4,727 bases of DNA from Escherichia coli (GCF_011045215.1 NZ_CP049203.1); one strand, 5' to 3'; counted from the first letter of the stretch, positions 2,323 to 3,953 are shown. Program-made: numbers and translations. The notes: generated from the sequence alone by a model not told the origin.

Positions 2323-2498
2323 TTTTGTAGCACTGCCGCATCGGTGGCGGTGCTACAAAACATATCCTGTCCCGTCGATGGGGCAGGATATCACGTCCGT
2401 TAGTTTTCATCGTCCGGGGTGCAGGGGTGGCACTCCTGCCAGGCGTTTTGCTGAACGGCCATCACCGATGGCGGTTCAACAAAACATATCCTGTCCCG
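2323..2498. repeat. Two ~30-bp imperfect direct repeats (2345-2374 and 2469-2498) with associated inverted repeats
   Basis: tggcggt-NNN-acaaaacatatcctgtcccg occurs twice about 124 bp apart. An 11-bp inverted repeat ttttgtagcac / gtgctacaaaa (2323-2333 / 2350-2360) overlaps the first copy, and atatcctgtccc / ggggcaggatat (2362-2373 / 2380-2391) is a 12-bp inverted repeat with one mismatch. Confidence 0.55.
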
Positions 2499-2632
2499 CC
2501 TTTGCGTTCGCCGTTCGCGCATTGATGGCCAGCTTTGGCCAGTACACTGGCCATCACGCCGGGTCACTTTGTCAGATGTTAAAAAATCACGCGGTAAACG
2601 CCGTTATGCGCGGGTTTGCGCATGAAGCTCCC

Positions 2633-2667
2633 GTGCGTCACTTTGTCAAAAAGTCAAAGTGACGCAC
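2633..2667. repeat. Perfect 13-bp inverted repeat with 9-bp spacer (gtgcgtcactttg ... caaagtgacgcac)
   Basis: 2633-2645 is the exact reverse complement of 2655-2667. No flanking T-tract on either strand, so a protein-binding site is more likely than a terminator. Confidence 0.55.
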
Positions 2668-2816
2668 ATCAGGAACCGCCGGAACGTTCGTGTTGATGAC
2701 GGCAACATGCGCACAACGCAGACAGAAAATCGCGCACATATTCAGCAAAAAATAAGCGTCACGGGGTGTTAATTTCGTGCAGCCCACGCGTGGCAGGGCT
2801 TGTGTGATAATTTTCA

Positions 2817-2852
2817 GTGACGTCACCTGGTGTGATGACCAGGTGACGCACA
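2817..2852. repeat. Inverted repeat cgtcacctggt / accaggtgacg (11-bp arms, 6-bp spacer) carrying GTGACG(T/C)CAC motifs, about 40 bp upstream of rop
   Basis: 2821-2831 pairs with 2838-2848. The 10-bp palindrome gtgacgtcac sits at 2817-2826 and GTGACGCAC at 2844-2852; the same 9-mer occurs at 2659-2667 and inverted at 2633-2641. Confidence 0.55.
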
Positions 2853-2891: not shown

Positions 2892-3086
2892 GTGAACAAA
2901 CAGCAACAGACCGCGCTCAACATGGCGCGATTCATCAAAAGCCAGAGCCTGACATTACTCGGGAAACTTGACGCTCTGGACGCCGACGAACAGGCCACCC
3001 TGTGCGAACGGCTACACGAACTGGCGGAAGAACTCTGTGACAGCGTACAGACGCACTTTGAGGCGCAGTACAGCACGGAACCATAA
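2892..3086 (+). CDS. rop: Rop/Rom, RNA I-RNA II pairing modulator of ColE1-type replicons (64 aa, GTG start)
   Basis: MNKQQQTALNMARFIKSQSLTLLGKLDALDADEQATLCERLHELAEELC aligns along its length with pMB1/pBR322 Rop (MTKQEKTALNMARFIRSQTLTLLEKLNELDADEQADICESLHDHADELY, from memory). It is oriented toward the origin as in pBR322. Stop TAA at 3084-3086; GGAGA/GGGAGA precedes the GTG. Confidence 0.9.
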   Translation: MNKQQQTALNMARFIKSQSLTLLGKLDALDADEQATLCERLHELAEELCDSVQTHFEAQYSTEP

Positions 3087-3796
3087 CAGGGGCTGGCGAA
3101 AGCGGTCGCGGCTCGTCCGTGAGCGTTTTCGCCAGCAGACAAGCCCGGAGAGCGCGTCAGGACATGGGCTGAGAGAAACACCGGCGCGTAAGTGCTCAAA
3201 TCAGACTGGCGGAGACATTCCGCTTCCTCGCCCACTCGCTCACTACGTTCGGTCGCTGGGGCTGCGGCGAGCGGTGACGGCTCTCTCATAACGGCGGACA
3301 GTTTATCCACAGAATCGGGGGATAAGCCGGACAGAACATGTGAGCAAAAAGCACGAACAAAAAGGCCGCGGCGGGGCCGTTTTTCCATAGGCTCCGCCTC
3401 CCCCTGGCGAGCTTCACACTTTTCGAAGCTGCAAGCCTAGGATTTGACGAAACCCGATGTGGCTTCAAGATCATCACCGTTTCCGGTGAATCGCTCCCCC
3501 CTGCGACCTCCACATTCCCGCCATATCGTTTGCCGGATACCTTACCGCCTTTCCCCTTGCGGGACCGTGGCGCTTTCTCATAGCTCACGTGCATCTCTGC
3601 GGTATCTCGGGCGACTTAGGCAGTTCGCTCCAGGTCTGGCTGTATGCAGGACCCCCCCTTTCAGCCTGACTGCTGCGCCTGTTCCGGTAACTGTTCTCTT
3701 GAGGCCAACCCGGAAAGACACGCCTTAACGCCACTGGCAGCAGCCACTGGTAACTGGATTTGCAGAGCGAGATGTATACAGATGGTTACAGAGTTC

Positions 3797-3831: not shown

Positions 3832-3940
3832 ACAGTTTTTAGGTAATCTGCGCTCTGCGATAGCCAGTTACCATTGGAACAATGAGAAGGTGAGATGTCT
3901 CATCGCTCCCGGAAAAAACCGCCTTACGGCGGTTTTTTCC
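3832..3940 (+). ncRNA. RNA I (antisense replication inhibitor)
   Basis: Begins ACAGTTTTTAGGTAATCTGCGCTCTGC (pMB1 RNA I begins ACAGTATTTGGTATCTGCGCTCTGC) and ends in the hairpin plus U-tract aaaaaaccgcc-ttac-ggcggtttttt (3913-3936). About 108 nt, antisense to the 5' end of RNA II. Confidence 0.8.
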
Positions 3941-3953
3941 GTTTACAAGCCGA

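Follow-up and report, generated by a model that had tools for sequence, protein, structure and literature searches.

The window, i.e. the whole stretch of 4,727 nucleotides analysed here, represents a complete-looking 4.7-kb ColE1-like plasmid of Escherichia coli without a relaxase. It carries rop (2892-3086, + strand), which begins with a GTG start, encodes 64 amino acids and has homologues annotated as 'Rop family plasmid primer RNA-binding protein'. The rop leader (2852-2891, + strand), common to the long and short forms of the locus described below, contains the ribosome-binding site GGAGACGGGAGAAC, which is unpaired in the fold. A covariance-model search against Rfam 15 recovered RNAI at 3835-3942 and two weak matches at chance level elsewhere, none of the matches being located at the two palindromes IR1 and IR2 that are the subject of this work; a known RNA family was rejected as identity of the site on this ground. 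The cargo is apparently an SOS-controlled lysozyme-type bacteriocin (59-808, - strand) showing a Gly/His-rich N-terminus and a Phage_lysozyme domain (E 4e-8). A LexA-type box, CTGT-N8-ACAG (852-867), precedes the bacteriocin gene, and an AT-rich ORF of 159 amino acids with a hydrophobic N-terminus (4204-4683, - strand) is a candidate for the immunity protein. Positions 1100-1330, conserved across many ColE1-like plasmids, are presumably a cer-like multimer-resolution site with the XerCD core GGTGCGTACAATTAAGGGATTATGGTAAAT on the minus strand near 1110-1140.

Two tandem oriT copies of the IncI-complex/MOBP type are present at 2285-2376 and 2410-2500 (+ strand), each consisting of an inverted repeat followed by ATATCCTG|TCCCG and both being 89% alike in the core. 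We assume the nicks to occur after 2369 and after 2493, a position predicted by analogy to R64/RP4. The assignment to the MOBP/IncI type is supported by the inverted repeat, the YATCCTG|Y nick region and the homology to helper plasmids: the second copy shows 91% identity over 66 nt to a sequence that precedes mobA(nikA)-traI by about 50 bp in pUMNK88_Hly, an IncI1 plasmid, and the oriT unit matches 353 conjugative plasmids. Relatives, designated here by L numbers, carry a single IncI-type copy or an inverted copy (L014, L016, L009). A third inverted repeat, TGATGGCCAG-N14-CTGGCCATCA (2523-2556), lies just past the second nick region and is variable or half-deleted in the relatives L013, L015 and L003. 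In addition, positions 1415-1625 within a wider repeat region (1320-1625) show about 85% identity to the interval that separates traM from the SLT gene of the leading region in conjugative plasmids of the IncF/MOBF group, identifying an F-type oriT with GCACCG-rich repeats, and the plasmid thus bears oriTs for two helper families. Near this F-type oriT remnant we noted a weak Rfam match to the traJ-II motif (1791-1855, - strand; 29.5 bits compared to a gathering score of 40, E 0.015). The region illustrates how relaxase-less plasmids gather oriTs of several helper types.

An ORF of 81 amino acids (1981-2226, - strand) occupies the slot in which relatives have a ProQ/FinO gene, the upstream sequence being common to both; it has no Pfam or NCBIfam match and only nine homologues among 5.8 billion proteins. 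ProQ/FinO-family genes adjoin the orphan oriT in several small plasmids, in the slot that nikA/mobC takes in self-mobilisable plasmids (L001, 1189-1563; L002, 1452-1802; L025, a 133-aa ORF beside oriT; L067, 795-1148; also L068-L070). The oriT beside these genes is of IncI type or ColE1 type, and in L067 there is none between the gene and the conserved island described below. The terms oriT, ColE, mobilizable and small plasmid are absent from the text of a 2023 review of the ProQ/FinO family.

IR1 and IR2 lie in a non-coding stretch of about 390 bp between the orphan oriT and rop. The only ORF over this region (2638-2826, minus strand) is broken by a 1-nt indel in L014/L016, from which we conclude that the region is non-coding and by which a small protein gene was rejected. 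ORFs of 18-28 codons starting in the island were discarded as well, having no ribosome-binding site and stops that differ by lineage.

Two perfect palindromes upstream of rop

We found three exact copies of the 9-mer GTGACGCAC, at 2633-2641 (- strand), 2659-2667 (+ strand) and 2843-2851 (+ strand), compared to a mean of 0.05 exact copies in 200 dinucleotide shuffles, none of which reached three; a looser test, allowing one mismatch, is not significant. An earlier note on this DNA had located the first two copies correctly and had set the third one base too high, at 2844-2852. The copies form the outer arms of two perfect palindromes: IR1 (2633-2667), in which GTGCGTCACTTTG-N9-CAAAGTGACGCAC builds two arms of 13 nt (2633-2645 and 2655-2667) enclosing a 9-nt loop, and IR2 (2821-2848), in which two arms of 11 nt (2821-2831 and 2838-2848) enclose a 6-nt loop. 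The arms are 100% complementary in both cases and the centres are 184.5 bp apart, in full agreement with the two inverted-repeat sites with 13-bp and 11-bp arms, about 185 bp apart, that the earlier note had described. The IR2 hairpin grows to 2817-2851 by GUG/CAC pairs with one bulge, thereby taking in the 10-bp palindrome GTGACGTCAC already reported for 2817-2826. Both dyads are real and non-random: the plasmid contains five perfect inverted repeats whose arms measure 11 nt or more and whose loops measure 3-12 nt, compared to a mean of 0.017 per shuffled plasmid. As single-stranded DNA, IR1 folds with -15.1 kcal/mol (z -9.3) and IR2 with about -15 kcal/mol (z -4.9), the DNA folds of both being about -15 kcal/mol on either strand.

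The hexamer CGTCAC is present in six copies within 2636-2848, out of eight copies plasmid-wide where 1.9 are expected, showing the array to be wider than previously described. One solitary copy (2757-2762, + strand) is located between IR1 and IR2 and is conserved in most relatives. Upstream of IR1 we identified a conserved island, CACGCCGGGTCACTTTGTCAGATGTTAAAAAATC (2555-2588, + strand), which at 2563-2574 contains a third copy of GTCACTTTGTCA, placed exactly 74 bp upstream of its counterpart in IR1; the 14-mer GTCACTTTGTCA(GA) accordingly occurs three times, once in the island and once in each arm of IR1, the right-arm copy being inverted.

Several identities were tried for the palindromes and rejected. 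A scan for intrinsic terminators found none at IR1 or IR2, and there is no T-run at either site on either strand, excluding intrinsic terminators and supporting the earlier observation that a terminator-like U-tract is missing from both. The hairpins are not plausible as RNA targets of the neighbouring ProQ/FinO-like protein: a 3' U-tail is missing from them, the module is also found in plasmids lacking that gene, and plasmids with more distant FinO-like genes (L068-L071) have no module. A second oriT copied from a helper was dismissed, as neither IR1 nor IR2 contains a YATCCTG nick motif or has a homologue in helper plasmids, even at E<=10. Searching the motifs against operator consensi, as had been proposed, could be done with a negative outcome for the two regulators considered: the LexA pattern is absent from the region and a CRP-like match at 2803-2818 is no better than chance, and both were rejected as binding sites.

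Variation, deletion and distribution of the module

The module (2533-2890) is present in 40 PLSDB records, nearly all of them from Escherichia, on plasmids in 27 of 5426 complete E. coli genomes but never on a chromosome, and in 42 metagenome contigs; none of the records carrying it annotates it. Alignment with other rop upstream regions, a check that the earlier note had asked for, confines the module to a small clade of Escherichia ColE1-like plasmids, without a counterpart in ColE1. Scanning one genome per species (GTDB representatives) for IR2 together with the -10 motif discussed below resulted in four chance matches; the same scan returned one contig of a Clostridium assembly, which has 93% identity to the window plasmid over 1 kb and is taken to be a contaminant. 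Three independent lineages were at hand, i.e. the window clade, L009 and L067, and a literature search on the rop promoter or hairpins in such plasmids found nothing relevant. IR1 and IR2 are real, conserved in a narrow plasmid clade, undescribed and unannotated.

The arms of IR1 are identical in all relatives found by BLAST, including L009 with flanks of 74% identity. The IR1 loop is inverted in L015, and in L067 IR1 is rebuilt from two full inverted 14-mers resulting in 16-nt arms and a 3-nt loop, with a span of 29 bp compared to 27 bp in the window. For IR2 we observed 14 distinct variants, all sharing the unchanged outer 7 bp. Several plasmids show a change of one stem pair from C-G to T-A, a C·A intermediate being found in L006, single mismatches are tolerated near the loop, the loop length varies, and the outer half-sites (CGTCAC to GTGACG) are separated by 14, 16 or 18 bp. 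On at least three sequence backgrounds the IR2 loop, sometimes together with the adjacent mismatched pair, is inverted. Such inversions are the outcome of template switching, from which it follows that the hairpins form in vivo. Across the 14 variants 92% of the cells of the IR2 stem are paired, including one double change, and a covariation test performed no better than shuffles. Palindromes self-correct by template switching, and for this reason a maintained stem is no proof of selection.

The island is almost invariant in 26 variants, and in 55 of 56 copies it lies exactly 74 bp from IR1, a value kept even in the divergent L009 and L067. The 45-nt spacer of these two is about half identical, yet contains no indel. 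The retention of exactly seven helical turns suggests a factor binding to duplex DNA. A consensus fold of the spacer between island and IR1 gave a hairpin in each lineage, out of register between lineages.

Local comparison of the IR1 unit with the IR2 unit gave a single significant similarity, the direct repeat GTGACGCACA, which forms the 3' foot of IR1 (2659-2668, + strand) and the 3' foot of IR2 (2843-2852, + strand); with nothing significant in common beyond this 10-mer, a tandem duplication of the inverted-repeat unit was rejected. Short-form plasmids, i.e. NZ_CP081188 (L003) and its 3838-bp relatives, are missing exactly 184 bp between the GTGACGCACA copies, corresponding to 2669-2852 (174 bp plus one repeat copy), so that the rop leader follows immediately on the right arm of IR1 and IR1 stands in the place of IR2. 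Between L003 and one long-form sub-clade we counted 1 nt of difference across the 113 nt reaching from the island to IR1. L003 therefore nests inside the long-form diversity, which makes the short form a deletion derivative and not the ancestor, and the loss of 184 bp reads as a classical case of slippage, the short direct repeats involved being located at the feet of two hairpins. The earlier note had considered the sites as boundaries of a small inserted segment; a natural relative does exist that differs by exactly this segment between 10-bp repeats, but it arose by deletion from the long form and not by insertion into the window.

Further architectures depart from the long form at the same place. 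In the divergent lineage L009, L031 and L037 the sequence changes right after the GTGACGCAC of IR1 and continues with a 22-nt leader to rop, and in a rop-less type represented by nine contigs an A/C-rich stretch of 315 bp follows at this point. This type comprises L025, L019, L024, L030, L039, L046, L051, L052 and L057, with rop cut to its first two codons; in L025, the contig of this type that was examined in full, the ProQ/FinO gene is intact. Other rearrangements, in L004 and the L025 type, have their end-points at or beside the palindromes as well. L005-type plasmids contain a 252-bp MITE with a 5-bp duplication between IR1 and IR2, showing that a fixed distance between IR1 and IR2 is not needed. 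In L005 this element (1675-1926), flanked by a TTAAT duplication inside the rop-upstream module, has the same ends as two 19-bp terminal repeats, GGGCTGCGTTTGGGAAACG, which lie back to back and flanked by AATAA at 1030-1079 of the window; both represent one small MITE family characterised by target duplications of 5 bp.

The proposed link to rop and competing explanations

A predicted extended -10 motif, TGTGATAAT (2803-2811, + strand), precedes the foot of the IR2 hairpin by 5-8 nt. It combines TGn with five of six matches to TATAAT, would place +1 at about 2816-2819, and is one of just two extended -10 motifs in the 9454 strand positions of both plasmid strands. Positions 2796-2826 are nearly invariant among 26 variants, being the best-conserved stretch near IR2, and the -35 position varies, as expected for a -35-independent promoter. 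A standard -35/-10 scan and our own weight-matrix scan, both covering the two strands, gave no convincing sigma-70 promoter, with none upstream of IR1. The orientation of the module and its distance to rop are kept while the IncI-type oriT is inverted in L014, L016 and L009, which argues for the module being tied to rop and not to a strand-specific conjugative role. In the long form, the short form (L003) and the divergent form (L009) the rop start is preceded, at a distance of 22-43 nt, by a hairpin with GTGACGCAC at its end, this constant orientation and proximity to the gene in three architectures being what is expected of a stabilising hairpin. In L005 the MITE sits 32 bp upstream of the -10 motif, and -10, IR2 and rop stay together.

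We suggest a model in which IR2 would be part of the rop transcription unit. Transcription from the -35-independent extended -10 TGTGATAAT would begin at about 2816-2819, the rop mRNA would form the IR2 stem-loop with its first 35 nt, and the ribosome-binding site would remain free 25-40 nt downstream. A stem-loop at the 5' end is a classic shield of mRNAs from 5'-end-dependent decay by RNase E/RppH, and IR2 might stabilise the rop mRNA in this way; as DNA covering +1 it could double as a roadblock or operator. Slippage between the GTGACGCACA copies, deleting 184 bp, brings IR1 to the distance that IR2 has from the rop start, suggesting that the IR1 and IR2 hairpins may be interchangeable. That IR2 forms the 5'-terminal stem-loop of the rop mRNA behind the predicted promoter is the explanation we prefer, though we put it forward tentatively. 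The shifts of 14, 16 or 18 bp in the spacing of IR2 are in favour of it, a hairpin tolerating these better than a rigid operator. Against it, the short forms L003 and L009 do not contain the TGTGATAAT promoter, and rop in these plasmids therefore needs another promoter or stays unexpressed; furthermore, the module persists where T6SS cargo has replaced rop (L006, L011, L021; Col156-type and IncF plasmids), and the rop-less Col156-type/IncF plasmids carry an even better IR2. The island, the fixed 74-bp phase and the extra CGTCAC copy are left unexplained by a 5' hairpin.

These unexplained features are accommodated by an explanation that broadens the operator idea of the earlier note: CGTCAC-N3-GT in both orientations and the three GTCACTTTGTCA(GA) copies would be operators for a duplex-DNA-binding protein supplied by the host or a helper conjugative plasmid, which would control rop, and thus copy number, or an oriT-linked function. 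The density of CGTCAC, with six copies in 215 bp compared to 1.9 expected plasmid-wide, the 12-14-mer GTCACTTTGTCA(GA) in three copies, the phase of seven helical turns, the arms of IR1 remaining invariant next to flanks of 74% identity, and the overlap of IR2 with the predicted +1 are consistent with such an array. However, rop is the only gene common to the carriers, the upstream neighbour varying between ORF81, ProQ/FinO, ANR, Exc2 and a nucleotidyltransferase gene; the half-sites are 14, 16 or 18 bp apart in IR2, and for IR1 the spacing is 27 or 29 bp; a 252-bp MITE is tolerated between the sites; loops and inner arms change orientation freely; the LexA and CRP patterns are not matched; and no helper plasmid contains a homologous array even at E<=10. 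We regard binding of this kind, for either the control of rop or an oriT-linked function, as unlikely. The same holds for the pair of operators in its original form: the dyad symmetry is real, with perfect arms of 13 nt and 11 nt, but no regulator gene is linked to the module or common to its carriers, the half-site spacing is not constant among homologues, loops invert and the MITE separates the sites, leaving this reading weakly supported. In its most far-reaching version the island, IR1, the solitary CGTCAC and IR2 would act as a phased array for a protein that is not plasmid-encoded, i.e. a factor of an IncI/IncF helper or of the host; this appears distinctly improbable to us. If it were true, a hitch-hiker plasmid equipped with an oriT only would use the phased array to sense its helper and to adapt rop expression and thus copy number, or transfer readiness, resulting in a cis link of mobilisation to copy-number control in relaxase-less ColE1-like plasmids. 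Only the fixed 74-bp phasing of the triple 14-mer hints beyond the ordinary.

The mutational record can also be read in the opposite direction, namely that the palindromes have no dedicated function, are inherited and self-maintaining by template-switch correction, and have a mutational effect only, by loop inversions and repeat-mediated deletions. This would account for loop inversions recurring on different backgrounds, for the precise 184-bp deletion between the 10-bp repeats, for the end-points of the L004- and L025-type rearrangements at or beside the palindromes, and for the covariation being no better than shuffles; moreover, the module is unchanged where rop is gone, and the clade is young with 90-95% identity, so that conservation carries little weight. 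On the other hand, IR1 and the island are identical in lineages with flanks diverged to 50-75%, the 74-bp spacing is kept exactly, an extended -10 is found at the foot of IR2, and long perfect palindromes are usually unstable in E. coli plasmids unless something retains them. On balance we consider the absence of any dedicated function rather doubtful, though somewhat less so than the binding array.

According to a further explanation, the hairpins, whose formation in vivo is shown by the loop flips, would arise on the transferred strand or the lagging strand and provide a signal for priming or establishment (ssi or Frpo-like) in IncI mobilisation or ColE1 lagging-strand synthesis. The block lies on the leading side, 140-360 nt past the predicted + strand nick, its entire 400 nt are unusually structured on both strands (z -4.8 and -5.1), and the plasmid collects oriTs of F type and IncI type. 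In L014, L016 and L009, however, the oriT is inverted relative to the block, which would be transferred last and on the other strand, whereas a signal of this kind would keep a fixed orientation on the transferred strand. Furthermore, the block does not resemble the leading regions of helper plasmids, none of the stems contains a -35/-10 pair, and positions 3218-3290 downstream of rop, which from pBR322 we take to be the homologue of the ColE1 primosome-site region, are still present, making a single-strand signal very unlikely. A mobile element is the least probable of all explanations and close to refuted. The arms 2630-2648 and 2836-2854 are 84% complementary and the presence/absence polymorphism is associated with a 10-bp direct repeat, which would fit a MITE-like element (2630-2854) with imperfect 19-bp terminal inverted repeats or a 174-bp insertion with a 10-bp target duplication. 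But the short form retains all of IR1, placing the putative left terminal repeat outside the polymorphic piece, the 174 bp themselves have no terminal inverted repeats, and the short form nests inside the long-form diversity. The segment is found at one locus only (PLSDB; 5426 E. coli genomes, with no chromosomal copy; GTDB representatives), and the true MITE in the L005 region looks quite different. A MITE or insertion was rejected because of the missing terminal repeats on the polymorphic piece and the missing copies at other loci.

Weighing these explanations, and judging from sequence comparison, we infer that the palindromes most likely are ordinary cis-elements of rop expression, with the promoter, the start site and the stabilisation of the mRNA being predictions; the palindromes have also served as deletion end-points. 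If IR2 acts as 5' stem-loop or operator of rop, it would set the Rop level and thereby the copy number of small plasmids with bacteriocin or T6SS cargo. This would be a modest, lineage-specific addition to ColE1 biology that does not overturn the current understanding of ColE1 control. The comparison of relatives is of practical use as well: these short palindromes with a common foot represent points at which the plasmid backbone is broken and rejoined, by deletion, loop inversion and module exchange.

Comparison with known systems

IR1 and IR2 are not terminators, MITEs, oriTs, Frpo/ssi signals or members of any Rfam family. The adjacent region 2285-2500 belongs to the family of R64/IncI1-type oriTs; in contrast, IR1 and IR2 have neither the YATCCTG nick motif nor a homologue in helper plasmids. 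Compared to the region upstream of rop in ColE1/pMB1, the module has the same position relative to rop and is followed by a similar ribosome-binding site (ACGGAG there), but in ColE1 only 63 bp separate rop from the divergent mob gene, containing no inverted repeat and no counterpart of the 330-bp module, in line with the earlier note, which knew of no equivalent upstream of rop in pMB1.

Parallels for a role in expression are the 5'-terminal stem-loops that stabilise bacterial mRNAs, of the ompA 5' UTR type, with which IR2 shares a strong hairpin predicted 0-2 nt from the 5' end, an unpaired ribosome-binding site downstream of it and a conserved position of the hairpin relative to the start codon. 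Unlike these, the start site here is a prediction, the stem is an unusually long perfect palindrome of 11-14 bp, and a second, related palindrome without a promoter of its own is located 184 bp upstream. With promoter-overlapping operators such as the dyads of LexA and other repressors, IR2 has in common the dyad symmetry, the overlap with the predicted +1 and the repeated CGTCAC half-sites; the inconstant half-site spacing, the lack of a cognate regulator and the mismatch to the LexA and CRP consensus sequences set it apart. Quasi-palindromes undergoing template switching, of which deletion studies on pBR322 and chloroplast spacers offer examples, resemble the locus by loops inverted between otherwise near-identical plasmids and by the loss of exactly the sequence between two 10-bp repeats that lie at hairpin feet, but this likeness explains the mode of mutation and not the purpose. 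In their working mode, IR1 and IR2 thus resemble promoter-proximal 5' hairpins or operators, and in their mutation mode they resemble quasi-palindromes.
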